From a virus (lineage: Duplodnaviria; Heunggongvirae; Uroviricota; Caudoviricetes): 22,986 nt of DNA. The position numbers were made by a program, and so were the translations under genes. Positions within the stretch are counted from its first letter, which is position 1. Each line of letters starts with the position of its first letter. Shown here in pieces: positions 1 through 22,986 of this stretch. The notes beneath the pieces are model-generated. The model was not told where the DNA came from. It did not search any database and saw only the letters and a list, made by a program, of their open reading frames with translations. The DNA lies in the IMG/VR virus record IMGVR_UViG_2519899565_000007. The stretch is one strand, 5' to 3'.

Positions 1-1526
1 TCGTTGCCATTAACTCTGACGCTCATACCGCCCTCAGCGTAAGCTGGCGTAAGTAAAACTCCACCGGCTCCGTTACCATAGATACGGTTGTTGATTATAT
101 TAATATTATTGCAGTGGCCACCAACATTAATACCGTTACCGGTGTTTTGAAACAATCGGCACCCAATGATGTCAATGGAGTAACCGTTAACTAATATTGC
201 GTTGTTATTAGTATTAACCACGTCAATATTTTCTATTTTAATGTGGTTGGCTTCAGTAAGACTGATGCCGTTAGCTGCGTAGCCATTTCCGTCAAGACCA
301 AAGTCCCTGAACTCGCAGAACGTAATTACTCCATCTTGTTGCGTGATTATCGGTGCCGCTGTACCCGTAGAGAAAATTCTGGACTGATATGCGCCAGCAC
401 CTCGTATCATGGTGACAGTATTCTTAATCGTAATACCAGGGTCAACAATGAACACCCCCTCTGGTATAACAATCTCAGTTGGCAACGTAGCATCATCAAT
501 AGCCTTCTGAAACGCCGCTTTGTTCTGAGAACCGGTGTTGCCAACTTTAAATCCGTAGTCTGAAAGTGTCACCAAATCTACAGAAAGTTTTTCATATACC
601 GACATCGAGACGGCATCATTAAATTTAGGGGTATATGTAACTATTGAGGAGCCTTTATCTGTCTCTTGACTAATCAGGTCGCTCCGCAACGATGCATCCC
701 CTACAGATACCCAGGCACCAAGGGAAACCCCACCTGTTGATTCAGGGGTTGAATTCTCAGGAACATCTTTTGGTAAAGATCCATCCCAACGGTAGTACTC
801 GCCATTTCCATCAGGACGTTTCCAGTGAAGTGCCTGAAATCTAGTTGTTATTGAAGCACCATCCTGAAACGAATCAATAAGGGAATATCCCCATAACCCA
901 CTACTTTCAGGATCAAGAAGAAGCGGTGATCCAGAATTATCAAAACTCAGTGTTTTATTCTTTCTCCCATCCGCATCAGGTAACTCATTTATAAACGATT
1001 CAGGTACTCTCAAGCTTCTGCTTAGGCTGGCACCAGAAAGAATATCAACATAATCTTTCGTTGCTGCGTCTTTCGGCCTGGATGGGGCACGAAGATTACG
1101 AATATAGTTGTCCATTGCGTCGTAATAGTTAGCAGCAAATGACGGCTTACGTAGCGCCAGGCTAAACCAACTACGAACCTGCTGAATCAACATTGTCAAC
1201 TTATCAAGCGCATCCTCATGCACCTCAGCAAAGAACTTACCCTGGTTACGGAGATCCGTTTCCTGCGTAACCGGCAATTCACGTGATATGGAAATCTGGT
1301 AACCATTAGCAAGAGCTGTTGCCAGTATTACATTACCACCTACATACCCACCTGCGCCGGTTACTGTGTAGTCAGTATCTAGCGTCAGAACAGTGATGTT
1401 ATCGTTCAGGTCTACAACCTGGACTACCAGATCAGACTTCTTAAAAATCCTGAAGGTATAATGGAATGTCGTTGTAACACCGTTACCGGTGTATTCGTTG
1501 TGGTCAACTTCGGTTGAGACCGTCAT
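1..1526 (-). CDS. Tailspike / tail fibre, 3' end beyond window; T7 gp17-like N-terminal adaptor domain followed by beta-helix-like repeats
   Basis: ATG at 1526-1524 with GGAG 7 nt upstream; frame open to position 1 (checked triplets 3-299, no stops). N-terminus MTVSTEVDHNEYTGNGVTTTFHYTFRIF...VLTLDTDYTV has the pattern of T7 gp17 N-terminus as recalled; Asn/Gly-rich repeats downstream (NTGNGINVGG, NNRIYGNGAGG) suggest a parallel beta-helix. Confidence 0.75.
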   Translation of the reverse strand, partial: MTVSTEVDHNEYTGNGVTTTFHYTFRIFKKSDLVVQVVDLNDNITVLTLDTDYTVTGAGGYVGGNVILATALANGYQISISRELPVTQETDLRNQGKFFAEVHEDALDKLTMLIQQVRSWFSLALRKPSFAANYYDAMDNYIRNLRAPSRPKDAATKDYVDILSGASLSRSLRVPESFINELPDADGRKNKTLSFDNSGSPLLLDPESSGLWGYSLIDSFQDGASITTRFQALHWKRPDGNGEYYRWDGSLPKDVPENSTPESTGGVSLGAWVSVGDASLRSDLISQETDKGSSIVTYTPKFNDAVSMSVYEKLSVDLVTLSDYGFKVGNTGSQNKAAFQKAIDDATLPTEIVIPEGVFIVDPGITIKNTVTMIRGAGAYQSRIFSTGTAAPIITQQDGVITFCEFRDFGLDGNGYAANGISLTEANHIKIENIDVVNTNNNAILVNGYSIDIIGCRLFQNTGNGINVGGHCNNINIINNRIYGNGAGGVLLTPAYAEGGMSVRVNGN

Positions 1527-1579
1527 GTTAAATCTCCAGATAGTCGCAGCACCCGTTGCGCCGCATATCCGGTTATTCT

Positions 1580-1646
1580 ATTACCTGAAAAACCACATAT
1601 GGATATATAACCCATAAATACGAACAGATATTACCTTTCAGGTGAT
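1580..1646. repeat. Copy 1 of a shared regulatory element: ATTACC-N5-AACCACATATG ... ACGNACA ... 17-bp palindrome ATTACCTTTCAGGTGAT (1630-1646)
   Basis: Direct comparison with 18509-18587: identical ATTACC, AACCACATATG and ATTACCTTTCAGGT blocks in the same order and orientation. Lies in the divergent region between the tailspike start and the plus-strand 85-aa gene. Confidence 0.7.
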
Positions 1647-1682
1647 TCGCAAAACGTGCTGGATAGCAAACAAATTATTTGA

Positions 1683-1702
1683 TACTGTATATTTATACAG
1701 TT
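1683..1702 (+). promoter_or_regulatory. LexA (SOS) box TACTGTATATTTATACAGTT, immediately after a -35-like TTGATA (1679-1684)
   Basis: CTGT-N8-ACAG with AT-rich centre; 18/20 match to the E. coli consensus TACTGTATATATATACAGTA. Arrangement resembles the recA promoter (TTGATA followed directly by the LexA box). The -10 is weak (TATTGC at 1702-1707). Sits 20 bp upstream of the ATG at 1722. Confidence 0.75.
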
Positions 1703-1721
1703 ATTGCATGGAGAAGATAAG

Positions 1722-1979
1722 ATGCAGCAGTATCACTATCCACTGGAAGACGGATTTACCGAAAGGATTCACACGCCGGGAGGCGTCAGGTCACTGGTGG
1801 AGGGATCGCACTTGATGAAATTACTCCGGGATCTCGATAAGGATGGATTTAATGTCGATGGCCCACTTGCCGAACTGACTGCACTGATTAACTACGTCAC
1901 CAGCTCACAGATGTCTATGCAGGATCTGCAAACACATCTCGACTATTGTGCCGAACAATTACGAAAACAAACCACATAA
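1722..1979 (+). CDS. Hypothetical 85-aa protein, putatively SOS-regulated; antisense to the structural operon
   Basis: ORF track 1704..1979 starts at TTG; in-frame ATG at 1722 has GGAG at 1710-1713. Soluble, no recognisable family. Confidence 0.55.
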   Translation: MQQYHYPLEDGFTERIHTPGGVRSLVEGSHLMKLLRDLDKDGFNVDGPLAELTALINYVTSSQMSMQDLQTHLDYCAEQLRKQTT

Positions 1980-2001
1980 AGAAAAGGCCGCGAAAGCGGC
2001 C
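1976..2001 (-). terminator. Intrinsic terminator (GGCCGC-GAAA-GCGGCC) with a T-tract on the minus strand
   Basis: 6-bp GC stem 1986-1991/1996-2001 with GAAA loop; minus-strand continuation TTTTCTTTAT (rc of 1976-1985). Follows the stop of the 98-aa membrane gene and sits at the convergent junction with the plus-strand 85-aa gene. Confidence 0.65.
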
Positions 2002-2002
2002 T

Positions 2003-2014
2003 GTGACATGTCAC
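2003..2014. repeat. 12-bp palindrome GTGACATGTCAC (copy a), overlapping the stop codon of the minus-strand gene 2011..2307
   Basis: Exact palindrome; the same 12-mer recurs at 21825-21836 and with one mismatch at 16521-16532 and 19560-19571. Confidence 0.7.
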
Positions 2015-2307
2015 GTCCCTTTTCTGAATGATAGCCATTCGAAAAATGATGACATTCCACCGCAGACAATAGCAAAGATGATCCCACCAAAGAAGAGAAG
2101 GCCAGCCTGCCACCACTCCCACCGCCATACATCCACAGCGCCAACCATACCAACAATCGCTCCAACAAATGGAATATAGCTCACGATGAAAGCAATGGGG
2201 GCTGCAATTATCCAGTGCAATCCCCACCATGATTCAAGCCCAGCCATAATTGCTGCCAACTGAAAAAGACCAACGACGATATAAACAATGAATCCTATAG
2301 CTTGCAT
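2011..2307 (-). CDS. Small hydrophobic membrane protein (98 aa, about 3 predicted TM segments)
   Basis: ATG at 2307 with AGGTGA 5 nt upstream; sequence dominated by hydrophobic stretches (FIVYIVVGLFQLAAIMAGL, IIAAPIAFIVSYIPFVGAIVGMVGAV, LLFFGGIIFAIVCGG). Confidence 0.6.
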   Translation of the reverse strand: MQAIGFIVYIVVGLFQLAAIMAGLESWWGLHWIIAAPIAFIVSYIPFVGAIVGMVGAVDVWRWEWWQAGLLFFGGIIFAIVCGGMSSFFEWLSFRKGT

Positions 2308-2319: not shown

Positions 2320-2493
2320 TTACCCAGTAAAAATAAGAGGCCTCCCCTCAATAAGGCTTGCAACAAGAACTACTCCCTGCACAACAAAGATGAACCAGCA
2401 AATAGCTTGAGTCTGAGGGTTAAGAAAATATTTGTAGCGGTCAATAAATAACAATCCACCAGAAATTATCACACTCAAAATAATTAAAAACAC
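2320..2493 (-). CDS. Possible small membrane protein (57 aa, GTG start, 2 hydrophobic segments)
   Basis: GTG at 2493 four nt after AAGGAAG, directly after the upstream stop; translation VFLIILSVIISGGLLFIDRYKYFLNPQTQAICWFIFVVQGVVLVASLIEGRPLIFTG. Not in the ORF track (below length cut-off). Confidence 0.3.
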   Translation of the reverse strand: MFLIILSVIISGGLLFIDRYKYFLNPQTQAICWFIFVVQGVVLVASLIEGRPLIFTG

Positions 2494-2502: not shown

Positions 2503-4977
2503 TTATTGCGGAGTGACATCCTGAGGTCGCCACCAGTATGTCTGGTTAAACTCTTTCTTCGAACGTTGCTCCATTTTACGCAAATAGCCTGGTGAAAAAT
2601 ACTCCTGCATCTGGTTAAAGATCATGTGATCGAGAGCCGCCTTCAAGTACCAGAGATTCGCACCAGGCATCAAACCTTTCCCCAGCTTCACCAGATCACC
2701 ACCAGTCTGCTCACTCTTCCCTTCCACAGCATTTAACGGTATGCCCTGAGCAATCTTCACTACGTCATCAACCAGACCAGCTACCGGGCCAAGCATCGAC
2801 GCCAGCGCGCCGCTTCCGTACCTAGTGTGATCTGACAATAAAAAGTCACCGTAAAGGCCAAGACCACCACCTTTCAGTAGAGCACCAAGCCAGAATTTTG
2901 CGGCATCTTCTCCTGTCATCTCTCGAGGATTACGACCAGACGCAAGGTCGTTAAGTTGCTGCGACAAAGCGCCAAGAATGGTCGTACTGGCAATAAACGT
3001 CGCAATATATGCCGCACGCCCACCAGCAGACGGCATACCCATAGCGCGTGACCAGTGACGCATAACAACCGAGATAGGGAACGATTTAAACAGGAAAACA
3101 CTTCTCGTTAATTCACCTTTCCATGTTCCACGCTGAATACCAGAACCGGTTATCAGTTGCTCACGTGCTCCCGGTGTAATAACAGCCATATCAACTTCTT
3201 CAGTTACGGCACCGAGCAGTTTACGCATTGCCTCAAATTTCACGCGTTCAGGCTCACCAAGATGTTTAACTGCTGAATCAGGGATACGCATAATGCTTTC
3301 CGGTGTCAGCATCGTATTATTACCGTTCCCCCAGTCCTCCTGTTGCGCCAGCTTCCATACGCTCCAGTCTGTGTCAGTAATCCCTTTACTTTTCAGGATA
3401 CGAAAATCAGAGTCATCGAGGCTACGAAGGTCTGGTGTCCGTGACACTACTTCTCCCAGGCTTCCCATCATGGTTACGCCATAGGCGCGCTTGTGCGCAT
3501 CTGACCATGCTGTAAGCCCACTGGCACGCATTACCGCCGTTGCCGCCCAACGAGACACAGACGGCCCCATATTATCCATCGCCCAGCGGTTAACGCTGCC
3601 AAGTAGAGATTCCATCGCCAGGCCAGCGCGGCGCGCCCGCGCAAGCTCAGTACGGTTCGTTGGGTCCATAGCTTCAAGCTGGTTGCGAAATAACTGGTTC
3701 ATTGGAAGGTTGGTAACCTTCGCAGACAGATACATGGTTCCAAGATCAGAGAACGATGACAGCAACGCGGATCCGAGTCTGCTGGCAACCAGCCAGTTGC
3801 GGATATTGTCAGACCATCGCGCGATGTGCGGATTCGCTACAGGCTGTGTTTTTCCGGAAATAAAGTTGTACAAGTTCTCTGTTTTGTTCGCCAGACGCTC
3901 GACGCTACCGGTTTTACTCGGGTTAGCTGTTGCCGTTTCTGCCTTAACCTGATCAAGAAGAGAGCGGAAAACATGATCGGGGTTTGGGCCATATGTTTCC
4001 ACCAGCGCAATATCTTTACTGATACCTTCCAGGTGACCGACCATGATTTCCCATAGAGAGCGATCGCCATAAAGTTGCTGATATTGCAGATAGGAATCTG
4101 CATCTTTGAAATGTATCTGTCGTGATGCATTACCACGGTTAGCACGTACGCCGGAAATTCGCATTCCGGTATCAGTAAGCTTATTCAGCCCACCAGTAGC
4201 GATCGTGTTATAAGCCTCTCCAAGAAATGCAGACAACTCGGCATCGTTCATCAGTTGTCCATCGGCTCGGGTATAATATTTGCGATCCAGCTTACCTATA
4301 ACATCGCTAACCCATTTATCTTTTGATACCGCCCCAACCTTTTCCATAGAATGATGTTGAGGGATCCCCCAGTTTTCGAGATAGCCAATGTCCCCACCAG
4401 CATCATTAAACCGGCGGCGCAGTAGATCTGTCACTTCTCTCCACGCCTTAGCACCTTTTCTTGCTTTAGCATTGCCAGTATTTTGCCCTCGCATTTCATA
4501 TACCAGGTCACGCACGCCCGCTTCATCTTCAAACAGGCCAAAAAAGCGAGGATCGACTGCTTCAAATGCCTCCTGCAATTGACTCAATGCATAATCACGA
4601 GTGGCTTTTGTTCTGGATTCAACAGAGAGGAAATTCGATTTACCGTCTGCATTAAAAGCAATAGTACGGTTAAGAGCGCCAAGTTTCCCATCAGCCCCTT
4701 GATAGCTATTGATAAATTTATCCAATCTCTGACGTGCGGCTATAGTGAGGGCCACACGACGTTTCTTTAATGCCGCTTCTCGCTGTAATTCTTCAGATGC
4801 CAATTGTGCTGCACGATACAACCGTTCTGATTCGGAAAGTTGTCGCCACGACATCGGGTCATCACGAGCAATGGAGCGCATATTTCGATAAATGCGGTCT
4901 TCAATGTTCTGTATTTCTCGCGCCGTTAACGTGCGCTGCGCCGCCTGCTGGACCGCTTGTATACATTCCTGTCTCAT
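2503..4977 (-). CDS. Internal virion / ejection protein (824 aa), gp16-like by position
   Basis: Long ORF, ATG at 4977, five nt after the upstream stop; position equivalent to T7 internal core proteins; C-terminal hydrophobic segment. Confidence 0.7.
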   Translation of the reverse strand: MRQECIQAVQQAAQRTLTAREIQNIEDRIYRNMRSIARDDPMSWRQLSESERLYRAAQLASEELQREAALKKRRVALTIAARQRLDKFINSYQGADGKLGALNRTIAFNADGKSNFLSVESRTKATRDYALSQLQEAFEAVDPRFFGLFEDEAGVRDLVYEMRGQNTGNAKARKGAKAWREVTDLLRRRFNDAGGDIGYLENWGIPQHHSMEKVGAVSKDKWVSDVIGKLDRKYYTRADGQLMNDAELSAFLGEAYNTIATGGLNKLTDTGMRISGVRANRGNASRQIHFKDADSYLQYQQLYGDRSLWEIMVGHLEGISKDIALVETYGPNPDHVFRSLLDQVKAETATANPSKTGSVERLANKTENLYNFISGKTQPVANPHIARWSDNIRNWLVASRLGSALLSSFSDLGTMYLSAKVTNLPMNQLFRNQLEAMDPTNRTELARARRAGLAMESLLGSVNRWAMDNMGPSVSRWAATAVMRASGLTAWSDAHKRAYGVTMMGSLGEVVSRTPDLRSLDDSDFRILKSKGITDTDWSVWKLAQQEDWGNGNNTMLTPESIMRIPDSAVKHLGEPERVKFEAMRKLLGAVTEEVDMAVITPGAREQLITGSGIQRGTWKGELTRSVFLFKSFPISVVMRHWSRAMGMPSAGGRAAYIATFIASTTILGALSQQLNDLASGRNPREMTGEDAAKFWLGALLKGGGLGLYGDFLLSDHTRYGSGALASMLGPVAGLVDDVVKIAQGIPLNAVEGKSEQTGGDLVKLGKGLMPGANLWYLKAALDHMIFNQMQEYFSPGYLRKMEQRSKKEFNQTYWWRPQDVTPQ

Positions 4978-4982
4978 TTAAT

Positions 4983-6785
4983 TTAACCTCTCAAGAAACA
5001 CGCCACAGCAACATCAAACAGGCTGGAATCCTGTATTGCCTGCTCACTTTCCCTGTTCGCTTCATCCAGTACTTCACGCGCACTGCGCGATTGTGGATTA
5101 CCATCATCATCCAGCACGGTGATTATCATGTCCGGAGATTCAAGCAGCGAGTCTTCAGCTATACGCAGATCAATATCTCCTGCCGGATCTGCCATCATTT
5201 TTTGTTCTGTCTGTTGCAATATCTTACCGGGCTCAAAAGGAGCTACTTCGTCTGGCGTCCTGACCTCTGCTGTTTTATAGAATGAAACAGCCTGAGCATT
5301 AAGTTCACTTTCTGCCTGCTGTCTCCGAGCCAGTTCTGCTCGAGCTTCAAAAAACTGACCGCCAGGCTCATGCGGTGCCAACGCGTTACGAGAAAATTCC
5401 AGGCGTTCTTGTGCCTGCCGGATTCGTTGGTCAATATCGCGAAGTCTGGCCTGTTTATCTGATCGAGCACGAGACAAAGCTTTACCGCTACCGGTTGGCT
5501 CTTCTGCAAGAATTTGTGCACGCTGTTCAGTGAGATTTTCAATAATTCGTTGGCTATTAGCGATTTCAGACTGGTAAACCTGTCTATCTCCACGCGGCAA
5601 AAGCTGCGCGGCCTGTTCTTCAAGCAACCGATTTTCTATAGCGCGCGCCGTTACTCCATCATCTACAGATGACAGAGCCTCATTAACTGCCTGAGACAGC
5701 AGACTCTTGCGCCCAGGAATTTCACTGAAAGATGCAGACTCAACAATGCTGGCAACGTCTACAGGTCTCCCCTGGCTAACATCAGACATAGCTTTTCGCA
5801 GAGCCTGAATGTGAGAATTGCGCGAAAGCACGTTGATCGGCACGCCGGGAGAAATATCAATTTCAGCATGATGAGCGGCATTCGCCGCCAGTGCCGCATC
5901 GACATCAACTGGTGAAAAATTGGGGGTGCTTGTAGCCTCACCGCGAGAGTTAATAAATCTGCCGACACCACCAAACGCCACCCCAAGAACAGCATCAATA
6001 GCGATTGCCTGTCGATCCAACACATCATACTGGTTAGCCATTTCGCTATAGCCACCATCACGAAGCGTTTTTGCAGTAAGCCCACGCTGTGCCATACCGA
6101 ACGCAATATTTGTACCTGCGGCATAGGCAATATCTGGCGTTGCACGTACTGCTGTTGCTGCGGCGCGTCGCACTGAACTTTCACCCGTCCGCGCAAGCTG
6201 AGCCGCCACACCTTCCGCCAGCGCACCACCAGCACGTAACCCGAGGCTCATAGGGATCAGTGTTCCGGCACCAGCAGTAATACCCTGCACTAATCCCGCT
6301 TCCTGCGCCGTCCTGAAATCAACACCCTGTGCTGTCAGCCGTTCAAACTCAGAAAAACCCTGTAGCGAAGTTACCGCCGCAGCACCTCCGACCGGACCAC
6401 CGAGCGTTGTACCGATAACAGCCTGCCCGCCCATATCGAACAACCCATAAAGAACCTGCCCGGCGGTTCCGGTTGTCGCGGCATCAGGCGTCAGCCGCTT
6501 AACCTGCTGCTCTGCTAGTTTTCTCTGCTCGGCAATGTATGAAACTGAAGTGTCATTGAGCGAGGTGTTTTCGTTAACAAACTGAGCAATCGGGGATACG
6601 ATTTTATCCATCCCTGCCCAGAGCAACTGATCTGGCTTTGCCACCAGCCCGGAGTACAAACCAGACAATGCCGCTCCTACAGCATTGTCGAAAAAACCAA
6701 CATCGCTGTTAAAGCCAACTGGATTTGATGCTGCTTCGTCAAGCTGCTGATTCTGGTTTACTGGATTAAGGCCAAAGTAACTCAT
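4983..6785 (-). CDS. Internal virion / ejection protein (600 aa), Gly/Ala-rich N-terminal half and coiled-coil-like C-terminal half
   Basis: ATG at 6785 overlapping the upstream stop (ATGA); composition typical of ejection/core proteins. Confidence 0.7.
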   Translation of the reverse strand: MSYFGLNPVNQNQQLDEAASNPVGFNSDVGFFDNAVGAALSGLYSGLVAKPDQLLWAGMDKIVSPIAQFVNENTSLNDTSVSYIAEQRKLAEQQVKRLTPDAATTGTAGQVLYGLFDMGGQAVIGTTLGGPVGGAAAVTSLQGFSEFERLTAQGVDFRTAQEAGLVQGITAGAGTLIPMSLGLRAGGALAEGVAAQLARTGESSVRRAAATAVRATPDIAYAAGTNIAFGMAQRGLTAKTLRDGGYSEMANQYDVLDRQAIAIDAVLGVAFGGVGRFINSRGEATSTPNFSPVDVDAALAANAAHHAEIDISPGVPINVLSRNSHIQALRKAMSDVSQGRPVDVASIVESASFSEIPGRKSLLSQAVNEALSSVDDGVTARAIENRLLEEQAAQLLPRGDRQVYQSEIANSQRIIENLTEQRAQILAEEPTGSGKALSRARSDKQARLRDIDQRIRQAQERLEFSRNALAPHEPGGQFFEARAELARRQQAESELNAQAVSFYKTAEVRTPDEVAPFEPGKILQQTEQKMMADPAGDIDLRIAEDSLLESPDMIITVLDDDGNPQSRSAREVLDEANRESEQAIQDSSLFDVAVACFLRG

Positions 6786-14099: not shown

Positions 14100-14537
14100 T
14101 TAACCAGTTACTTTTGAGCGGATCGGGTACGGCGTATTGGCATCAACATCCAGACTGATACCCGCAGTGAATTTGCCGGCCGTTAGTGGGCCAGTTGCGA
14201 CGGAGTAGTTAACACGCAGATATCGCTGAACACCGGCTGGCACCTTTGCAGAAACAACTCGCTTACCTGCTGTCAGGGTGGCCTTTGCCAACGCACCACT
14301 ATCATAAATAGTGGTCCAAGAGCTGTTATTCTCACTCGTCTGCAACTGGATGTTTACAGTTGCCTCACCACTTGCCGTGGCGGCTTCGTTAACCAGCACC
14401 CAAAACTCAAGCGGGTAACCCACACCGATATCGCGACGGTTTCCATCAATTGGACCGAGATCGATTACGTCAGTAGAAGCCGCGGTATTCGTAACCGCCT
14501 GAGCTTCGGAGAACATCAACAGTTTGTCGGTGATCAT
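14100..14537 (-). CDS. Hypothetical head protein (145 aa), possibly a capsid decoration/accessory protein
   Basis: ATG at 14537 with GGAG 7 nt upstream; immediately downstream of the major capsid gene; beta-rich composition. Confidence 0.55.
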   Translation of the reverse strand: MITDKLLMFSEAQAVTNTAASTDVIDLGPIDGNRRDIGVGYPLEFWVLVNEAATASGEATVNIQLQTSENNSSWTTIYDSGALAKATLTAGKRVVSAKVPAGVQRYLRVNYSVATGPLTAGKFTAGISLDVDANTPYPIRSKVTG

Positions 14538-15581: not shown

Positions 15582-15589
15582 TTCCTCTT

Positions 15590-16285
15590 TTATTTGCCAT
15601 AGAGCACTTCGGCCGCACTACGCTGGCCTTCATTACCACCGGTGACCATGCCATCTTCAGACATCGCCTTTCCGATTTTCACGAACGTTTTGACCAGATC
15701 AGGGTGATTACCCAGCCCGGTGGTGTTCAGATATTCTTTGAGTTCAGGTGTCCCGAACTGGTCAAGCGCACGCTGTGCGGCGCTAAGGTTAGAAATCAAC
15801 TTGTCGCCACCGATTTCTTTGTCAGCTTTTACATCCGCAGCCCACTGCTCGGTTGTTTTCTGCCAGGCTTCTGCCTGGCGCTGCTGAACACCTGCCAGAA
15901 TCTTCGGATAAGCATCAACCAGCTTTTGCGCTTGCTCGTTGGTCAGGTTTAGTTCTCGCGCCACCGGCTCGAATTCCTTCAACGCTTCTGTATCCAGCTC
16001 TACGCCTTCGGCAGCCTGAAACTCGTACTTCTCAGGCGCACCCTCTGGTTTATCGCCGTCCTTTTTTTCATCCTGCTTATCGTTTTCAGGCTTTTTGTCA
16101 GCAGCAGGTTTATCGCCATCAGCAACAGGTTGTGGCTTATCACCTTCCTGTTGTGATGGATCACCAACTGGAGCTGGGTTATCACCTGCAGGCGCTGACG
16201 GTTCTGAAGCAGCCGGAGCTGCTCCACCATCGACTGGTTGCTCATTGCAAAGACGGCTATACAGCAAACGCTCAAATAAATTCAT
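15590..16285 (-). CDS. Scaffolding protein (about 231 aa from the ATG at 16285)
   Basis: Acidic, Pro/Asp/Lys-rich low-complexity N-terminus then helical region; located between portal and capsid; ORF-track start 16291 is GTG. Confidence 0.65.
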   Translation of the reverse strand: MNLFERLLYSRLCNEQPVDGGAAPAASEPSAPAGDNPAPVGDPSQQEGDKPQPVADGDKPAADKKPENDKQDEKKDGDKPEGAPEKYEFQAAEGVELDTEALKEFEPVARELNLTNEQAQKLVDAYPKILAGVQQRQAEAWQKTTEQWAADVKADKEIGGDKLISNLSAAQRALDQFGTPELKEYLNTTGLGNHPDLVKTFVKIGKAMSEDGMVTGGNEGQRSAAEVLYGK

Positions 16286-16287
16286 GA

Positions 16288-16584
16288 TCACTCCTGTTCA
16301 CTGGCCTCTTTGGCCATCTTCAAATACTGTTCAGGGCAATGCGCCATAACGCGCTGAAACAGTTCCAGCGCCAGATTGCGTTGCCCCTCATTAAATGCCA
16401 TTGCCATAGCATCCATCGGAGAGATAGCGGAAAACACCCGGCCTTTCTCCAGCACAGACCAGACAACGCGACGCCCCTGTTCACTGCTCATGACAAAGCG
16501 AATGTCATCAATTTCACGCTGTGCCATGTCACGTTGCTTACGGGCGTTTTCTTCTTTCAGTTGATCGTCTTCGTAATCTGTCAT
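16288..16584 (-). CDS. Hypothetical small head-module protein (98 aa)
   Basis: ATG at 16584 overlapping the portal stop (ATGA); AGGGTGGG upstream. Confidence 0.55.
   Translation of the reverse strand: MTDYEDDQLKEENARKQRDMAQREIDDIRFVMSSEQGRRVVWSVLEKGRVFSAISPMDAMAMAFNEGQRNLALELFQRVMAHCPEQYLKMAKEASEQE
16521..16532. repeat. Copy d of the palindrome family: GTGCCATGTCAC (1 mismatch), flanks match copy a (TGTG-CATGTCACGT)
   Basis: Direct comparison with 2001-2016; lies inside the 5' part of the 98-aa gene. Confidence 0.5.
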
Positions 16585-18260
16585 TGTGATTGCCCACCCT
16601 GACCACTAACTGCATTCGCCATAGCTGACAAAACACTCGGATCCGAAGTTTTAGCTTCGCTTAGCGTCTTGGCACCCTGTGCCGCCGCCATCCCCATCGC
16701 CATCATTTGTTGCTGCTGTTGCTGCTGTGCCCGTTGCTGGCGAGCCTGATCAACCTGTTCCTGCGGAACAATGACGGTTGGAGACACTCCGGACATATCA
16801 GCGAATGCATCGATCGCCTGATCAACGTTGAGTTTGTCGAGAGCTTCTGGTTTCGCTTGCGCAAGTTGACCAATGAAGTTAACCGTGGACGCCAGACTGG
16901 ACAGGCCGATAGACTTCTGCGCCTGAGCCATGACGGAAATGTATTCGACCTTCAGGGGCATGCCTTCCATCGCGTCAGGCGGTGGCGGCAGCATGTTTTT
17001 ACGCACCATCATCGAGAAAGCGCGGTCAATGAGAGGATTAAGACATTCGTCGTTCAGACGCTCCAGAACCGGCCCCAACATCAGAAGTTTTTCTTCTTTC
17101 ATTTCGATCACCGCTTCAACAGGCATCGAGCGGGTATTGATGTTCTGCAACATCATGAACAGATCGACAAAGTAGGCGCTGTTAATGATTTGACGAGTGT
17201 CCTGAATGTCTGCTACCAGATCTGCTGTACTGGGGTTAACCAGATAAGCAGGCCTGAAACCATCCTGACCAGTAATCTGATCGATATACGTGATGTCGCC
17301 AGGAAGAAGGGAGGCGCGCTGATTCTTGAGGGAAGTCGGAGCAACCATCGGCGGATTGGTGGCTTTATCAATCAACTGCGACTTGCGCTTCTGAAGAAGC
17401 TGCAATGCCTTAACAGGTCCAAGCGCCAGCATACCCGGGCATGATGATCCATAAACATCTTCGCCGTTAACTTCCCAGCGCGGAGCCATAATTGGAAACT
17501 CATCGAATCCGGACTCACGCAACAACTTGTCGTTATCGCCGCCAACCTCGTAATAAACCGATTTGAATGGCTTGTTCTTGCTATCCAGCTTCGATGTATC
17601 GCGGTCAATGTTCGGGTAAACCGAATGCATCACCTCAATCCACTTCTCGTAGGTGCCAATTTCCCACATGCTTTTTACGTATTCGCTGACGTTATTTAGC
17701 CCGAACTCCTGAACAAGCTGACGAACAGTCATAGAGAACTTGCGAAAACAGGTGTCCACACTGCCACGAGGTGAGTTAGCCAGGTAGTAACTACCTATCG
17801 GGAATGGCATTGTGCGAATGATGTCCTCGTCATCCTCCAGCACCGCCATTGCACCAGTGCTGTATGTGCCGAGGCTTCCGTATAACTGCGGAAGAGACTG
17901 GTAGAGATTCGAATTATTGAACATATCATTCATGCGGTTCTGCACCGCCTCAAGCCACAACTTAACAGGGCCATAATCCATCATTTCAGGATCTGGCGTA
18001 GCCAGGCGAAACCACGGACGCGCGGGGCTTGTGATGCCTGACATCATGCCGCTGGCGAGAGTGCGCGCCGCCATAGTCCCGGTCGAATCAATAATGCGTG
18101 TATTGCGTCGATCGTTACGGTTGACCTCAGAAGTCAGAAAGCGGGAACCACGCGGGTTGATGTAATCACTCAACTCGCGCCAGTGCGGCTCGAACGACTG
18201 ACGCTCGCTTTCAAGTTGTGCGAACTGTTTGTTCAATCGCTCTTTAGTTGTTTCCGCCAT
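16581..18260 (-). CDS. Portal protein (559 aa), T7 gp8-like head-to-tail connector
   Basis: Size and position after the large terminase; C-terminal Gln/Met-rich tail (QQRAQQQQQQQMMAMGMAAAQG) resembles the T7 gp8 C-terminus as recalled; GGAG RBS. Confidence 0.8.
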   Translation of the reverse strand: MAETTKERLNKQFAQLESERQSFEPHWRELSDYINPRGSRFLTSEVNRNDRRNTRIIDSTGTMAARTLASGMMSGITSPARPWFRLATPDPEMMDYGPVKLWLEAVQNRMNDMFNNSNLYQSLPQLYGSLGTYSTGAMAVLEDDEDIIRTMPFPIGSYYLANSPRGSVDTCFRKFSMTVRQLVQEFGLNNVSEYVKSMWEIGTYEKWIEVMHSVYPNIDRDTSKLDSKNKPFKSVYYEVGGDNDKLLRESGFDEFPIMAPRWEVNGEDVYGSSCPGMLALGPVKALQLLQKRKSQLIDKATNPPMVAPTSLKNQRASLLPGDITYIDQITGQDGFRPAYLVNPSTADLVADIQDTRQIINSAYFVDLFMMLQNINTRSMPVEAVIEMKEEKLLMLGPVLERLNDECLNPLIDRAFSMMVRKNMLPPPPDAMEGMPLKVEYISVMAQAQKSIGLSSLASTVNFIGQLAQAKPEALDKLNVDQAIDAFADMSGVSPTVIVPQEQVDQARQQRAQQQQQQQMMAMGMAAAQGAKTLSEAKTSDPSVLSAMANAVSGQGGQSQ

Positions 18261-18274: not shown

Positions 18275-18481
18275 TTACTGACCAAGCAGCGTTTTACCGC
18301 TGGTATTAGCGGTTGATGTGTCGCCCTGAGAACCGGTAAGCAGCGTAGAACTACGACCAGCAGCAGCGCGACGGCGACGTGTTTCTTCGTCGCGGGCATC
18401 AACAACGGCGGCATCCTGCTCCTGTGGTGCTGCCTGAACTTCTGGTGTTGCAGGCACTGATGGTGAGCTACCCATGCACAT
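18275..18481 (-). CDS. Hypothetical small low-complexity protein (68 aa) immediately upstream of the portal gene
   Basis: ATG at 18481 with GGAG 8 nt upstream; its initiation region (ACGGAGTCATTGAT-ATG) nearly duplicates the portal one (CCGGAGTCATTGAA-ATG). Confidence 0.45.
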   Translation of the reverse strand: MCMGSSPSVPATPEVQAAPQEQDAAVVDARDEETRRRRAAAGRSSTLLTGSQGDTSTANTSGKTLLGQ

Positions 18482-18508: not shown

Positions 18509-18587
18509 ATTACCAATTTAACCACATATGATTTATTTATCGTAGATAGTTGACATTTAACGCACAAATTATTACCTTTCAGGTAAT
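18509..18587. repeat. Copy 2 of the shared regulatory element, with a 12-bp insertion carrying TTGACA (18550-18555); perfect 17-bp palindrome ATTACCTTTCAGGTAAT (18571-18587)
   Basis: See copy 1; lies between the minus-strand 68-aa/portal genes and the plus-strand tRNA unit. Confidence 0.7.
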
Positions 18588-18908
18588 CAAAGGGTTCATT
18601 CCGGTTATTAACCTGACTGGCTTGTCGTTAAATTGAACAGGTGGAGTGAGCTTTTATTTTGAGCAGTACGGCGTATGGCACATGCGCCGATAGCGGTCTG
18701 GATACGTTTAAGGGGCACCCTCCCTTGCTCGGGCAAACGAACCAGGTAGCCGGGATGTGCAAGTCGAGCGGTTTTATTCCGCGCACGGGGATTCACCATC
18801 CCGGCGATTCGGTGTGACGCCTCGGAAGAGACGAGGGTACAACGATGAGAGCATTTATGGAGCCGCGACAAAGTGTGGCGCCTTAACAGGCTAAGTGCTC
18901 TCAGCGTT
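18588..18908 (+). other. About 320 bp ORF-free, GC-rich, hairpin-rich segment upstream of the tRNA; candidate structured RNA or long tRNA leader
   Basis: No plus-strand ORF above ~25 codons; several local stems (e.g. CCTCG-N7-CGAGG at 18820-18836); followed directly by the tRNA. Confidence 0.3.
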
Positions 18909-18985
18909 GTGGCATTAGCTCAGTTGGACAGAGCAACCGCCTTCTAAGCGGTTGGTCGCAGGTTCGAATCCTGCATGCCACGCCA
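18909..18985 (+). tRNA. tRNA-Arg (anticodon UCU), argU-like, CCA encoded
   Basis: Hand-folded cloverleaf: acceptor GTGGCAT/ATGCCAC, U8-A9, D-arm GCTC-AGTTGGACA-GAGC, anticodon arm ACCGC-CTTCTAA-GCGGT (UCU at 18943-18945), T-arm GCAGG-TTCGAAT-CCTGC, discriminator G, CCA. D, anticodon and T arms match E. coli argU as recalled. Confidence 0.9.
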
Positions 18986-19028: not shown

Positions 19029-19070
19029 GGCGGTGATAGTTTCCCTTGAAGGACTATCACCGCCCTTTTT
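19029..19070 (+). terminator. Strong intrinsic terminator after the tRNA (12-bp perfect stem plus CTTTTT)
   Basis: GGCGGTGATAGT (19029-19040) pairs with ACTATCACCGCC (19053-19064), followed by TTTTT at 19066-19070. Confidence 0.85.
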
Positions 19071-19100
19071 ACAGCAGGACGCCATTGCGATGACTTCATG

Positions 19101-19116
19101 CTGTAAACCCGTACAG
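19101..19116 (+). promoter_or_regulatory. Weak LexA-like site CTGTAAACCCGTACAG (CTGT-N8-ACAG), between the two tandem terminators
   Basis: Correct half-site spacing but the centre is GC-containing and the flanks are non-consensus. Confidence 0.25.
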
Positions 19117-19148
19117 CCACGGAAAGCATAACTCATTGCTTCCAGTTC

Positions 19149-19172
19149 GCCCGGTTCGCCGGGCATTTTTTT
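19149..19172 (+). terminator. Second intrinsic terminator/attenuator (GCCCGG-UUCG-CCGGGC followed by A and U7) ending 11 nt before the start codon of the 123-aa ORF
   Basis: 6-bp GC stem with UUCG tetraloop and seven Ts (19166-19172); then AAGGTGAG (SD) and ATG at 19184. Confidence 0.7.
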
Positions 19173-19183: not shown

Positions 19184-19555
19184 ATGAACGACCAGCAAAT
19201 CGAAAAAGAAATCGTTGAGAAAGGCAAAACGGCACCGCGCGTTACGCCAGACCATATCGAAGGCATTATTGCTCAGGAGGCATATTTCACAGCAGAAGAT
19301 GGTGCCTTTGGCAAAGCCATAAAAGCGAAACATACTGGCGGAGAGGTAAACTACCAGCCGCACGAATCACTTTCTCTGCTGACGTTCTGCGTCCTGGTGC
19401 TGCGCAACGGCTTCACCGTCACCGGAGAGAGTTCCTGTGCAAGTCCGGAAAATTTTGATGCAGAAATTGGTCGGAAGATTGCCCGGCAGAATGCTGTAAA
19501 CAAAATCTGGATGCTCGAAGGTTACTTGCTGAAGCAGAAGTTAAGCGAGCAATAA
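19184..19555 (+). CDS. Hypothetical 123-aa protein (moron), antisense to the structural operon
   Basis: ATG with AAGGTGAG SD; flanked by intrinsic terminators on both sides; no family recognised by eye. Confidence 0.6.
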   Translation: MNDQQIEKEIVEKGKTAPRVTPDHIEGIIAQEAYFTAEDGAFGKAIKAKHTGGEVNYQPHESLSLLTFCVLVLRNGFTVTGESSCASPENFDAEIGRKIARQNAVNKIWMLEGYLLKQKLSEQ

Positions 19556-19645: not shown

Positions 19646-21121
19646 TTAAGCATAAGGGTCATAATCCGTTATGGCCCTTCCCTGCTGGCTTTGCTGTCCT
19701 GGTATATTTATGCGTTTCGAGACCGGGAAAGCAAACGTCAGCAGTAGCGCATCGCCTTTACCAGGAGAACGCCCAAGACGCTCTTTGATATCTTCCTTCG
19801 GTTCGATAACGATTTTACCGTCCACACGAACTTTGTACTCTGCCGCCGACAGGTCGTCTGCAGTTTCTTGGTCATCCAGCATGCCGCCCAGCCTCAGCCA
19901 TGTCTTACATGAGTTGAACATCTCCCCACGCTTGTTAAGCATCTGCGGGTCAGTGGACGCACCGCCGAACGGAACAAGTTGCCATGTACGTCCCCAGCCA
20001 TCACCGATTGACTTCAAACCGGTTCCATAACCGAAGTCGATGAACACCGCGTCAGCCTGATACTGGTCTTCAAAGTCAGCGATACGCTTCGCCATAATCA
20101 GATCGTCGGTGGTCTTGTTACCAGTCCATAGCACCTTACTGTGCAGCCCCTGCCGCAGGTATATCACAGCGTCATCAACGCCGGAGTATGCCGGGTCAAC
20201 GCCGATTATCACCGGAGCATGTGCAACCTGCGCAGCGGTTACCACCCGTTTCATTGCCTCGTCAGTAAGGCCGGTAGGGATAAACTGCAATTCAGATGCA
20301 TCCGGGAATATGCCGCGCACACGGATTTTAACGAAGTCGCTGTCTTCCCCGTAGTCATCAACCCATTTCTGCAACTGCTGTTTGTTAGTGCCTTCCACCG
20401 TCCGGCTGTCAATCTGCGCAGTTTTCCAGCGGTGTTTATATTTGCGGAAACATTCGCGGAAACGCCCGGTGTTACGTGTAGGGTTTCCGAATGCCACCCA
20501 GATAATCTCAGTGTCTTCGTCCGTCAGCGCACCCTCTGCTACCTCCCACACCAGATCGGCAATGTTGGATGCTTCGTCGAATACCACGATGATGCGTTTG
20601 CGCTCGTTGTGTAGTCCGGCGAATGCCTCAGTGTTGTGCTCAGACCAGGGGATTGCGTCAGCTCGCCACCGCTTGTCGTGCCCAGGGTCATTGCTGTACA
20701 TCGCGGTAGCGGTACAGGTAAACCAGTCTTTCGTGATAGCAAGGTTCGACCACTTGATAATTTCCGGCCAAGTCTTCGTTCGTAGCTGGTTTTCGGTGTT
20801 GGCGGTCACCACGACCTTACAATCCTCGCAAGTGGACATGCCCCAGTTGATCAGCATTGAGATGAATGCGGATTTACCAATACCGTGACCAGAAGCACGT
20901 GTCAGCATAAGCGGCTGATATCGCGTCTCTGGATTCTGCAGGTGATCACGTATCTCTCGGAACGCATCGGCCTGCCACTGACGTGGACCGGTGGCATGTG
21001 CCAGTTCAGTACCCTCTTCCCCCCACGGGAACGCATAGAGGGCATAGCCAAGCGGATCGTGAGTGAACCCTGCAATATCCTCGATTAACTGCTCTTCAGG
21101 AGATAACGCTGTATCTGTCAC
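19646..21121 (-). CDS. Terminase large subunit (491 aa)
   Basis: Size and position; ATPase-like segments (VVVTANTENQ, Walker-B-like VVFDEASN) and a C-terminal Asp-rich nuclease-like region (VIIGVDPAYSGVDDAVIY); GTG start at 21121 overlapping the small-terminase stop (GTGA). Confidence 0.85.
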   Translation of the reverse strand: MTDTALSPEEQLIEDIAGFTHDPLGYALYAFPWGEEGTELAHATGPRQWQADAFREIRDHLQNPETRYQPLMLTRASGHGIGKSAFISMLINWGMSTCEDCKVVVTANTENQLRTKTWPEIIKWSNLAITKDWFTCTATAMYSNDPGHDKRWRADAIPWSEHNTEAFAGLHNERKRIIVVFDEASNIADLVWEVAEGALTDEDTEIIWVAFGNPTRNTGRFRECFRKYKHRWKTAQIDSRTVEGTNKQQLQKWVDDYGEDSDFVKIRVRGIFPDASELQFIPTGLTDEAMKRVVTAAQVAHAPVIIGVDPAYSGVDDAVIYLRQGLHSKVLWTGNKTTDDLIMAKRIADFEDQYQADAVFIDFGYGTGLKSIGDGWGRTWQLVPFGGASTDPQMLNKRGEMFNSCKTWLRLGGMLDDQETADDLSAAEYKVRVDGKIVIEPKEDIKERLGRSPGKGDALLLTFAFPVSKRINIPGQQSQQGRAITDYDPYA

Positions 21122-21714
21122 TGATTGCCATCCTGACGTTCTTTCAGTCTCTTCCTGGCTGCCGCTATGCGATCAGCAATTGTCACATTCACATTAACAT
21201 CCAGGCGTTCTTTGAATGCGTTGACGTCGACGTGCTTACCAATCAGTTCGAGGTTCTTCACCTTGTCAGGCCATTTAATTTTTTTGAGGATTGTCTCTAT
21301 CGAATCCTCGTTCATGTTCATGATGGTCGATGACAGATCAAAGCCACTAAGCGTAGTGCGCCAGATTTTCGGCCACTCACGGATTGGTTTAAGGCTCCCA
21401 TCGTCGTTGAGGATATCGATCACGTCCATCTGGTCGATCTCCACCAGGCGCATGAGAACGTAATCAGCACTGACGCGCATTCGTTTGTTGCGCTCCTCCA
21501 TCAACTCGGCAATCCGTTTTTGAATGCGTTCATCGCGCATCATGACACTGGCTTTAACTGCCGCTGTATTTGGGGAGAATCCTGCGTTAATCGCTGCCTG
21601 AGTCTGGTTTTCAGGCGTTTTGATGTATGACTGGCAATAAGCCTCCTGCATTGCTGTTAGTGGCTTAAATTGCGTTGATTTGCGTTTATAGGTTTTAGGT
21701 TCAGCAGGCATCAT
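21118..21714 (-). CDS. Terminase small subunit (P27-like family), about 198 aa
   Basis: Immediately upstream of and coupled to the large terminase; motifs ...AINAGFSPNTAAVKAS... and ...LELIGKH... typical of phage small terminases as recalled. ORF-track start 21792 is TTG; tandem ATGs at 21714/21711 follow GGTGG. Confidence 0.75.
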   Translation of the reverse strand: MMPAEPKTYKRKSTQFKPLTAMQEAYCQSYIKTPENQTQAAINAGFSPNTAAVKASVMMRDERIQKRIAELMEERNKRMRVSADYVLMRLVEIDQMDVIDILNDDGSLKPIREWPKIWRTTLSGFDLSSTIMNMNEDSIETILKKIKWPDKVKNLELIGKHVDVNAFKERLDVNVNVTIADRIAAARKRLKERQDGNQ

Positions 21715-21721
21715 AACCACC

Positions 21722-21753
21722 GTGGTAATAGTTACCGTTGTGGTAATAGTACC
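21722..21753. repeat. Tandem imperfect direct repeat GTGGTAATAGTTACC / GTGGTAATAGT-ACC just upstream of the small-terminase start
   Basis: Two ~15-bp units separated by GTT; each contains GGTAA-N-TTACC-like half-sites related to the ATTACC/GGTAAT half-sites of the 17-bp palindrome. Confidence 0.55.
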
Positions 21754-21756
21754 ATG

Positions 21757-21783
21757 CAAAATAAAGCCGCCATAGTTGGCGGC
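21757..21783 (-). terminator. Intrinsic terminator (GCCGCC-N6-GGCGGC followed by UUUAUUUUG on the minus strand) upstream of the terminase genes
   Basis: 6-bp GC stem 21766-21771/21778-21783; minus-strand T-tract is the rc of 21757-21765. Confidence 0.65.
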
Positions 21784-21824
21784 AGTATTCAAAACACATC
21801 AAATTCATCATGCATAATCCACTC

Positions 21825-21836
21825 GTGACATGTCAC
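21825..21836. repeat. 12-bp palindrome GTGACATGTCAC (copy c), overlapping the stop codon of the minus-strand gene 21833..22171
   Basis: Exact match to copy a; same register relative to the TGA stop (G-TGA-CATGTCAC on the minus strand). Confidence 0.7.
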
Positions 21837-22171
21837 ACTATTAATTTCGTTTCATGCCAGCCTTTAGTCACCCAGCATTGCGAGTCACCATTGCACGGGC
21901 ATGAATTAACTGGAACTCTCTCGCCGCACTTACCGCAACGTTTTCTGCTGATCGATTTTATACGCCCGCGCACGCGTGCATCATCCTGGCGGATCAGTAA
22001 CGCTATATACTCACCAAATTCGTAAGGCGCACGCCCGGGGCGACGCGTGGCACAGTTACGCTCCAGCATTTCAATTTCCTGAGCATCAAGCACAATTTCC
22101 AGCTTACGCACACCAGATGCAGCTTGTCTGGCTCTCTGAGCGGCTTTGCGCTCTGCTGCTGATTTAGCCAT
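21833..22171 (-). CDS. Hypothetical basic protein with C-terminal Cys-rich zinc-ribbon-like motif (112 aa)
   Basis: ATG at 22171 (ORF-track start 22174 is TTG); CGKCG...CPC motif; 8-nt overlap with the upstream gene. Confidence 0.55.
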   Translation of the reverse strand: MAKSAAERKAAQRARQAASGVRKLEIVLDAQEIEMLERNCATRRPGRAPYEFGEYIALLIRQDDARVRGRIKSISRKRCGKCGERVPVNSCPCNGDSQCWVTKGWHETKLIV

Positions 22172-22445
22172 CAATATTTACCTTTATCGCGAACACCTTT
22201 ACCGGTTTATCACCGAAGTGGGGATGTGTGATTGTCTTGATTTCATATCCGTCATACGGGACGTTAATTCTGCGGCTGGAGTCGTCGCGCTTCGGATATC
22301 CCTTTGTGATAATCAGACGGTCATACTTACGGTTAACGAGGCGCTTTTTCCAGTAGTCATTACACAGGCGATACTCTTCCGTTTTCTCTCCGCGAATCAT
22401 GGCATCGAAGTATTCACCTTTGACGGCAAGTTGCAGGTTAGCCAT
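22164..22445 (-). CDS. Hypothetical phage protein (93 aa)
   Basis: ATG at 22445 overlapping the upstream stop by 8 nt (ATGGCTAA). Confidence 0.55.
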   Translation of the reverse strand: MANLQLAVKGEYFDAMIRGEKTEEYRLCNDYWKKRLVNRKYDRLIITKGYPKRDDSSRRINVPYDGYEIKTITHPHFGDKPVKVFAIKVNIDG

Positions 22446-22986
22446 GGTTAACCTCCTGCGGCGGTTCTGGTAGAGGCATCCAGTGAGTTACGTCATCCAA
22501 GATATTTCCTGATAAATACGTGAAAGCTCTATATTTTTTGTAATCAATTGGATTTACAACCCAGTTCCAATATGCGGCCACGATTTCACCTTGACTAAAT
22601 GCCAGTAACATTTTGGTGTCTTCCGGCATTCGATCACTACAGCTTATCCAACCACCCGGAGTTACCGGAGAATTGCCATTTACATCGAAGTTTGGTTCTG
22701 CGTCCTGAACTAGGAGGATGTAACCATTCTTGGCTGTATCAAGTTCTAACGCCTCGGTTACGGTACCGAAATAGCGATTACCTAAATCCGCATCACAAGT
22801 GCTTACATCAATGGAAACCTCCATGCCTTCGATTAATTCTGGCAAGTTGTAAGTTTGGCTTACAGGCTCTGCTTCCAGTGATGCCAGTGCAATTCGTGCC
22901 AGTTCTTCCGCTTCTTCTGCTGGCAGTACAACGTTGCTACCAGGTCCGTATGTTTCGCGCCACTGTTTGATTGTCAGCAGTCGCCC
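22438..22986 (-). CDS. DUF551-like phage protein, 5' end beyond window
   Basis: Reading frame stays open upstream of the ORF-track TTG start to the window edge; C-terminal motif ...GWISCSDRMPED...VTHWMPLPEPP matches the DUF551 family as recalled. Confidence 0.6.
   Translation of the reverse strand, partial: GRLLTIKQWRETYGPGSNVVLPAEEAEELARIALASLEAEPVSQTYNLPELIEGMEVSIDVSTCDADLGNRYFGTVTEALELDTAKNGYILLVQDAEPNFDVNGNSPVTPGGWISCSDRMPEDTKMLLAFSQGEIVAAYWNWVVNPIDYKKYRAFTYLSGNILDDVTHWMPLPEPPQEVNHG

Follow-up and report, generated by a model that had tools for sequence, protein, structure and literature searches.

The virion region of a phiV10-type Uetakevirus prophage in Escherichia coli and its predicted LexA–Ant–Rep induction switch

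The genus Uetakevirus, whose type members are phiV10 and epsilon15, is already known to be temperate. The homology of the epsilon15 tail and internal proteins to those of T7 has been described, and the terminase and capsid of this phage were found to group with those of siphoviruses (Hardies et al. 2016, PMC4819975). For another Uetakevirus, the Salmonella phage SPC32H, the structure of the Rep–Ant complex is available (PDB 5D50): the DNA-binding form of Rep is a tetramer, which falls apart when an Ant tetramer, produced once LexA has cleaved itself, binds two Rep dimers. Here we analysed a stretch of 22,986 nucleotides, IMG/VR record IMGVR_UViG_2519899565_000007 (the whole of which is called the window below). 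A prediction made from the letters of this stretch had described it as a mosaic virion module that joins a T7-type tail machine to a P27-type small terminase and carries SOS-regulated and tRNA insertions. We found that the window almost certainly covers the late genes, those of the virion, of a Uetakevirus prophage that is complete, integrated in Escherichia coli (E. coli) and a member of the phiV10 species group.

Identity of the window and the surrounding prophage

The chromosome of E. coli strain 10153 (NZ_AP027191.1, 3581964-3604949) contains all 22,986 bases of the window with 100% identity, and at least 80% of the window was present in 280 of 5,426 complete E. coli genomes. Among deposited phages, the O157 typing phages 9 and 10, PAS61, phiv142-3 and phiV10 showed a nucleotide identity of 97.5-97.8% over 86-91% of the window. 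In megablast searches phiV10 was 97.8% identical across 88% of the window and epsilon15 76.7% identical across 41%; the identity of Enterobacter phage Tyrion was 81%. Synteny was gene for gene with both phiV10 and epsilon15. The minus strand carries nearly all of the long open reading frames (ORFs), in a single collinear virion module that extends from terS through the tailspike and is interrupted by three plus-strand units: an 85-aa ORF, a tRNA-Arg(UCU) and a gene of the Gp49/Sf6-gp66 family. The phages closest to the window (phiV10, typing phages 9 and 10, vB_EcoP_PAS61, phiv142-3, vB_EcoP_ZX5 and TL-2011b) have the same gene order from terS to the tailspike anchor, the same tRNA-Arg(UCU) and Gp49-family gene, the same ant gene with a LexA box and the same guaA attachment core, and differ in the receptor-binding part of the tailspike (window 1-1043) and in the content of a cargo slot. 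The virion modules of epsilon15 and SPC32H/SPN1S have the same gene order at about 77% nucleotide identity.

Since the original prediction had advised a look outside the window, we inspected the surrounding 50 kb in strain 10153. The prophage is complete, measures 37.1 kb and lies between yfgI and guaA. It contains a lysis cassette, gtrA, lambda-P-type replication and recombination genes, a helix-turn-helix (HTH) repressor and, adjoining guaA, a tyrosine integrase with PF00589 and an arm-binding domain. The attachment core ATTGAGTGGGAATGATT, published for phiV10, epsilon15 and ZX5 (PMC9782041), was found as exact 17-bp repeats in exactly two copies (L003 8299 and 45417), 37,118 bp apart, the second of which overlaps the 3' end of guaA. 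The presence of the integrase, the exact att repeats and an uncleavable Rep-type repressor confirmed the temperate lifestyle that had been suspected. No gene for a single-subunit RNA polymerase was found among the annotated prophage genes of this region. By homology to the imaged phages epsilon15, ZX5 and Carin-1, the virion is expected to be short-tailed. For other prophages of the phiV10 species, a 21- to 47-fold induction by a microcin that damages DNA has been reported (bioRxiv 10.64898/2026.05.26.727859), and such prophages were induced and packaged in other isolates (bioRxiv 10.64898/2026.05.26.727859; PMC9782041).

The element is a standard phiV10-type Uetakevirus prophage, and its tail, packaging module, tRNA, att site and LexA–Ant–Rep switch have all been described before. 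The suggestion that it might be an otherwise unusual relative did not hold: at about 97.7% identity to phiV10 it is an ordinary Uetakevirus whose mosaic composition is already published. With sequenced type members, cryo-EM virion structures, an analysis of T7 homology and a crystal structure of the switch at hand for the genus, the window has little value for discovery; its practical value is in annotation.

The ant gene, its LexA box and the Rep operators

The 85-aa ORF beside the tailspike (1722-1979, plus strand) is, judged by its sequence, Ant, a part of the conserved induction switch of the genus and not an insertion. Its product matched the PDB chain 5d50_E, deposited as 'Anti-repressor protein', with E 1.3e-47 (residues 2-85 against 3-86) and was 88% identical to the product of the gene annotated ant in SPC32H; across comparisons the identity ranged from 84 to 88%. 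The AlphaFold2 (AF2) model of the product was moderate (pLDDT 72.5, pTM 0.45) and was used as a pointer only. Foldseek led from it to 5d50_H, and the match to 5D50 was confirmed by sequence. The prophage Rep matched 5d50_A (E 4e-42 over residues 1-190); it has two HTH domains and no S24 autocleavage peptidase domain, Pfam finding only HTH. In SPC32H the same order of tailspike, operator, LexA box and ant is found, and epsilon15 has this layout as well (PDB 5D50/5D4Z for the Rep–Ant switch); the Rep proteins of both phages are of the same two-domain type without the S24 peptidase.

We searched the window for LexA sites with the pattern CTGT-N8-ACAG, for which 0.38 sites per window are expected by chance, and obtained three (1685, 14559 and 19101). 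The site at 1685-1700 on the plus strand (CTGTATATTTATACAG) is a perfect match and lies 21 nt before the ATG of ant. A LexA box occurs at the same position in 10 of 10 related loci from seven genera, among them those of SPC32H, epsilon15, phiV10 and TL-2011b. The two half-sites, CTGT and ACAG, are the same in every one of these loci and the bases between them differ, as one would predict if LexA binding were under selection. This box is the only credible one of the three. The site at 14559 was rejected as probably a chance match, and that at 19101, which lost its ACAG half in epsilon15 and is flanked by two terminators, was rejected as well. Of the SOS-regulated insertions proposed earlier, the regulation stood for the conserved box before ant; the two other sites are likely due to chance, and ant itself, being genus-wide, is no insertion.

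If the switch works as in SPC32H, lysogeny would be kept by the uncleavable two-HTH Rep repressor binding the palindrome ATTACCT-N3-AGGTAAT. DNA damage would remove LexA from the box before ant, and the 85-aa Ant would then bind Rep and break its DNA-binding tetramer, as was shown for the SPC32H proteins. The 17-bp palindrome is present in two copies in the window, one at 1630-1646 (ATTACCTTTCAGGTGAT) between the promoters of the tailspike and ant, the other at 18571-18587 (ATTACCTTTCAGGTAAT) between the gp3-portal operon and the tRNA/Gp49 unit. Each copy has a virion operon of the minus strand on one side and a plus-strand unit on the other (tailspike and ant; gp3-portal and tRNA-Arg-Gp49). 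The site at 1630 is conserved in seven genera, and the epsilon15 sites homologous to both copies are annotated 'repressor' in the epsilon15 record. The 37-kb prophage as a whole has eight copies, 0.06 being expected (L003 13594, 30535, 36609, 36671, 38617, 39002, 39714 and 45268). They are found before the tailspike and gp3-portal operons, ahead of the block from DUF1064 to the terminase, around rep/cro and next to int. This scatter of eight palindromes suggests direct repressor control of many transcription units. It is possible, although we consider it rather doubtful, that Rep controls much beyond the immunity region, the late structural operons and the antisense tRNA-Gp49 transcript being gated directly by Rep and Ant without a transcription cascade. 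A noncoding block that the window has in common with epsilon15, described with the tRNA below, could then belong to the Rep-gated plus-strand unit. Such control of late operons, if true, would refine known biology and would not add a new kind of system, because the sites are already marked 'repressor' in the GenBank record of epsilon15.

The Ant domain also forms the C-terminal module of proteins headed by Bro-N, AntA or Rha modules, and the 85-aa product was 42% identical to the C-terminal domain of the Bro-N antirepressor of TL-2011b. A scan of genome contigs with Ant gave five loci only. We had considered the ORF as an undescribed antirepressor because the repressor is uncleavable, because Bro-N, AntA and Rha antirepressors end in a homologous domain and because of SOS inducibility; this was dropped when the fold search and then the PDB sequence search identified it as the already solved Ant of SPC32H. 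The gene is labelled 'hypothetical protein' in the RefSeq prophage and in all E. coli Uetakevirus records (phiV10, ZX5, TL-2011b, PAS61 and others), and the study of ZX5 tested only the Bro-N protein as antirepressor (PMC9782041). The 85-aa gene beside the tailspike can safely be renamed as the LexA-controlled antirepressor Ant. This is the only new point of the analysis, and a clerical one.

Relation of the tail and packaging module to T7

The window and T7 have the order adaptor, nozzle, small core proteins, large core proteins and fibre in common. The similarity of the individual proteins could be demonstrated at different levels. The genes described in this section are on the minus strand unless stated otherwise. 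The 559-aa portal (16581-18260) is a full-length member of the T7 gp8 family (PF12236, E 7e-186, residues 7-496), so that the family named in the original prediction was right and the limitation of the likeness to the C-terminus was not; its closest solved relative is the portal of Carin-1 (8ck0, E 7e-177). For the 202-aa tail adaptor, or tubular tail protein A (12775-13383), no sequence-family match was found in Pfam, also at E<=10, and a profile of 21 adaptor homologues searched against PDB sequences did not reach T7 gp11; the structure-based search did. The AF2 model (pLDDT 85) matched T7 gp11 7box_M in Foldseek with E 7.8e-6 and a TM score of about 0.6, and over the T7 gp11 entries 7box, 7ey7 and 6r21 with E 8e-6 to 2e-4, probability 1.0 and TM 0.55-0.6. 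The tubular protein A of KP32 and other podovirus adaptors were also matched with probability 1.0. A further match was to the Carin-1 connector 8ck1_E (Foldseek E 2.7e-16, TM 0.83), with which the adaptor also has a sequence match of E 6.6e-26. By its model, the adaptor has the gp11 fold, as confirmed by these comparisons. The 823-aa tail nozzle, or tubular tail protein B (10304-12775; phrog_376), matched the Carin-1 chain deposited as 'Tail Nozzle' (8ck1_A, E 1.3e-216). No direct match to T7 gp12 was obtained in the PDB sequence search or in pairwise BLASTP and phmmer; for epsilon15 gp12 a comparison of hidden Markov models (HMM-HMM) with T7 gp12 was reported at E<1e-10 (Hardies et al. 2016, PMC4819975).

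Internal proteins follow the nozzle. A 155-aa protein (9840-10307; phrog_308) occupies the position of T7 gp13, and a standard IVP-A homologue has been described for the epsilon15 family (PMC4819975). The next, 181-aa protein (9295-9840) passed the cut-off of the T7 gp14 family (PF24072, 31.2 bits against 27, E 2.5e-7) and is named 'virion core protein, T7 gp14 family' in RefSeq. Three large proteins come after it. The 837-aa counterpart of epsilon15 gp15 (6782-9295) has a lytic transglycosylase domain (phrog_992, phrog_1044 endolysin and phrog_7182 'tail injection transglycosylase'), and a note in the epsilon15 record gives an HHpred match of gp15 to lytic transglycosylase. The 600-aa core-block protein (4983-6785; phrog_1145) corresponds to epsilon15 gp16; an IVP-C homologue in the epsilon15 family is unconfirmed (PMC4819975). 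The 824-aa internal virion or ejection protein (2503-4977; phrog_684, E 0) corresponds to epsilon15 gp17. It had no match in Pfam, and its assignment to T7 gp16 comes from the literature, where epsilon15 gp17 was placed in the extended IVP-D family (Hardies et al. 2016, PMC4819975). A rescan of Pfam at E<=10 gave only sub-threshold hints of T7 gp13 and gp17. In sum of architecture, the virion would have a tail of the T7 type, in which the adaptor has the gp11 fold, the nozzle is of the gp12 type and a gp17-type N-terminal anchor attaches six O-antigen-specific tailspikes, and would carry internal core or ejection proteins at the gp13 and gp14 positions, then three large ones, one of them with a transglycosylase.

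The packaging genes are of another kind. The small terminase gene terS (21118-21792) gave a single Pfam match, to Terminase_2 of the SPP1/SF6 type (PF03592, E 1.4e-29), with the domain starting at residue 45; among solved structures the SF6 small terminase 3zqp came closest (E 1e-6). The P27-type label could not be upheld, as no match of terS to the P27 family (Terminase_4/TIGR01558) was found in Pfam or NCBIfam at E<=0.01, and this label should not spread. The terL gene (19646-21121) was assigned by phrog_2 (E 1.1e-52) and annotation and had no sequence match in PDB or Pfam; in NCBIfam ten window proteins, terS and terL among them, were without a match. The terminase had also been said to stand directly upstream of the portal. 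It does precede the head genes, unlike in T7, and between terL and the portal there are about 1.4 kb, which hold gp3, a small gene, together with two plus-strand units, the tRNA and the Gp49-family gene. The headful-type terminase with its Terminase_2 small subunit would fill an HK97-fold capsid, of the GP7 family and with gp10 staple and Bbp16 cement, through the T7 gp8-family portal. In its annotated form terS uses TTG as start codon, and the first 27 residues (MNTAANYGGFILHGTITTTVTITTVV) are unusual. TL-2011b annotates a shorter terS of 594 nt, and the true start may be an internal ATG (MMPAEPK...).

The closest solved portal, nozzle, connector and N-terminal domain of a tail fibre are those of the Cobetia marina phage Carin-1 (cryo-EM, PDB 8CK0/8CK1), which has a marine host and a different receptor-binding/depolymerase part; the paper on Carin-1 Dpo31 contains no discussion of T7 homology. 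Compared with T7, the window shares the PF12236 portal family, the adaptor fold and the gp14 family, and probably the nozzle, at the profile level, and a gp17-type anchor, transitively. It differs in that it has no RNA polymerase and is temperate, in that its terminase is of a different type and encoded ahead of the head genes, and in that its capsid belongs to the GP7 family, its tailspikes are not kinked fibres and its transglycosylase resides in a different protein. The mosaic of a T7-type tail with a siphovirus-like terminase and capsid is real and already published (PMC4819975).

Several observations weigh against reading the window as part of a phiV10-type prophage with a T7-related tail and the switch of SPC32H. 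When 24 window proteins were compared with 14 T7 proteins (gp8-gp19) by direct BLASTP and phmmer (--max), no significant pair was obtained. The protein at the gp13 position stayed below the threshold of PF11090, T7 Gp13 (E 0.089), the 600-aa protein matched no Pfam family and is without a demonstrable T7 homologue, and the window's own tailspike anchor was below the cut-off of PF03906, the N-terminal domain of T7 gp17 (E 0.64). Rep is only about 45% identical to that of SPC32H, and since it is, the immunity specificity may differ from that of SPC32H and epsilon15. LexA binding, Ant–Rep binding and operator occupancy in the E. coli prophage are expected by homology, and the data on inducibility come from other prophages of the phiV10 species, not from the copy in strain 10153. 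The claim of a T7-type tail machine can be kept for the portal, adaptor and gp14 protein and is probable for the nozzle and the gp17 anchor, and 'T7-like' holds only at the level of family, profile or fold, a relationship that is real but remote; pairwise similarity is lacking and no gp15 homologue was shown. The T7-type portal, adaptor, nozzle, gp14 protein and fibre anchor, together with a terminase placed otherwise than in T7 and a temperate lifestyle, could be taken as signs that a temperate branch of the T7 group, novel or unusual and resembling Autographiviridae, has newly become mosaic with a foreign P27-type packaging module. We regard this as extremely improbable, because the element belongs to Uetakevirus, outside Autographiviridae, and has about 97.7% identity to phiV10, a phage sequenced in 2005-2009. 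The RNA polymerase, the virulence and the terminase at the end of the late region that mark Autographiviridae are all lacking in it, its proteins have no pairwise similarity to those of T7, its TerS is Terminase_2 and the mosaic pattern had been published.

A complete phiV10-type prophage also has to be weighed against a defective remnant, or a structural module kept for exploitation by satellites. The truncation of gtrB near the tailspike and the absence here of the Bro-N antirepressor of phiV10 and ZX5 would fit a remnant. This reading is nevertheless very unlikely: all virion ORFs are intact and collinear with those of infectious phages at about 97.7% identity, both att cores, the integrase, rep, ant, the replication genes and the lysis cassette are present, and phiV10-species prophages were induced and packaged in other isolates. 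For the satellite-exploitable module raised in the original prediction we saw no evidence, with no satellite-type genes in the 50-kb region. Within the reading of the window as a phiV10-type late region, a remaining question was the number of LexA-controlled units. Exact CTGT-N8-ACAG half-sites at 19101-19116, 68 nt upstream of the Gp49-family gene and conserved in the near-identical E. coli phages, would make the tRNA/Gp49 region a second SOS-regulated unit beside ant. In epsilon15 the ACAG half reads AAGC while the surrounding sequence is conserved. The site has a G+C-rich centre (AAACCCGT), it lies between two plus-strand terminators with no promoter-like site, and the number of sites expected by chance is as given above, so that we think a second unit very improbable.

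Tailspike, cargo slot, head genes and the tRNA region

The tailspike gene (1-1526, minus strand) is cut by the window edge after 508 of its 873 codons; the full-length coding sequence in the prophage has 2622 nt. Matches to PF18668 (E 7.5e-17), Beta_helix (E 3.8e-7) and phrog_6518 tail fiber (E 2.8e-203) were obtained, and the protein starts with a virion anchor of about 205 aa, which is followed by a Tail_spike_N domain and by a receptor-binding part with a beta-helix. The N-terminus matched that of the Carin-1 tail fibre (E 3.3e-23), where only the first ~129 residues align. Seven homologues that are 52-59% identical over the whole anchor pass PF03906 at about 1e-9, those with 54-59% identity reaching 37-38 bits against a cut-off of 25.2, and the anchor of the window appears to reach this family only transitively. 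The similarity to phiV10 breaks at 1043-1044, after about 160 codons of the gene, a point that still falls within the ~205-aa anchor as delimited in PMC10408124. The receptor-binding part (1-1050) had no megablast match among 50,697 deposited phage genomes and was 100% conserved in several chromosomes of Shiga toxin-producing E. coli (STEC), including the O26 strain RM10386. Unrepresented in deposited phages and common in STEC chromosomes, it is useful for the mining of O-antigen-specific tailspikes. Downstream of the tailspike, just left of the window, gtrA is followed by a truncated gtrB-like glycosyltransferase pseudogene (L003 10370-10830). Since this gene is truncated, the O-antigen modification (superinfection exclusion) module of strain 10153 may be defective. 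The O-antigen specificity and serotype-conversion genes of epsilon15 differ from those of the window prophage.

The slot at 1980-2500 between ant and the core-protein operon holds variable cargo among phiV10, TL-2011b, HEMP4 and phiv142-3. Here, as in HEMP4 and phiv142-3, it contains a 98-aa membrane protein (2011-2307, minus strand; phrog_3075). In phiV10 and ZX5 the slot is taken by the Bro-N antirepressor, and in TL-2011b by Bro-N and Ant together with a YafO toxin and an Arc-like repressor. Positions 1985-2002 form a bidirectional terminator. A small membrane protein (2320-2493, minus strand) was placed by synteny at the position of epsilon15 gp18 and phiV10p21.

The head genes, all on the minus strand, begin with gp3 (18275-18481), a 68-aa protein and the first gene of the portal operon (phrog_831; synteny). 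Behind the portal come a Bbp19-like protein (16288-16584), the scaffold/protease (15590-16291) and the major capsid protein (14589-15581; PF20911 GP7, E 2e-149); the block 14589-16584 also had matches to phrog_458 and PF25181. Three capsid accessory genes complete the series: the Bbp16 cement protein (14100-14537), gp9 (13754-14098) and the gp10 staple (13380-13709). They were named after RefSeq, and the accessory block 13380-14537 had family matches to PF21628 (E 7e-52) and PF21190 (E 5.6e-49).

The tRNA insertion of the original prediction was borne out. The tRNA-Arg(UCU) at 18909-18985 on the plus strand (Rfam, 73.3 bits) is shared by the phiV10 clade and lacking in epsilon15, and by this comparison it alone among the plus-strand units is an insertion relative to epsilon15, specific to that clade. 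The inserted segment of about 330 nt also contains a terminator of the tRNA (19029-19064, 14-bp stem) and splits the noncoding block common with epsilon15 (18618-18702 and 19065-19172). Within this block is a hairpin in which a compensatory change is seen, the window reading CGGCG..CGCCG and epsilon15 CGGCA..TGCCG, and a second terminator closes the block immediately ahead of the Gp49 gene; part of the block is marked as an RNase III site in the epsilon15 record. Apart from the tRNA, an Rfam scan of the window (E<=1) found nothing. The window genes use the AGA codon 6.5 times per 1000 codons, about three times the E. coli average. At this frequency a translational benefit of the tRNA is plausible, and it probably helps to translate the AGA-rich phage genes. 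An 83-aa ORF, phiV10p04 in older phage records (18915-19166, minus strand), overlaps the tRNA on the opposite strand and is not called in the current RefSeq annotation; this coding sequence is therefore probably spurious.

The Gp49/Sf6-gp66 family gene (19184-19555, plus strand; PF13876, E 4.6e-34), to which no function is assigned, stands between terL and the portal operon and points in the opposite direction to the late genes. Since epsilon15 has it too (epsilon15p50), it is older than the tRNA insertion. On the other side of the terminase, the minus-strand genes at 21833-22845 were assigned by phrog_536 and RefSeq names and encode a 113-aa putative regulator, an ASCH-domain protein and a DUF551 protein; the start of the last lies upstream of 22845, at 23004 by RefSeq.

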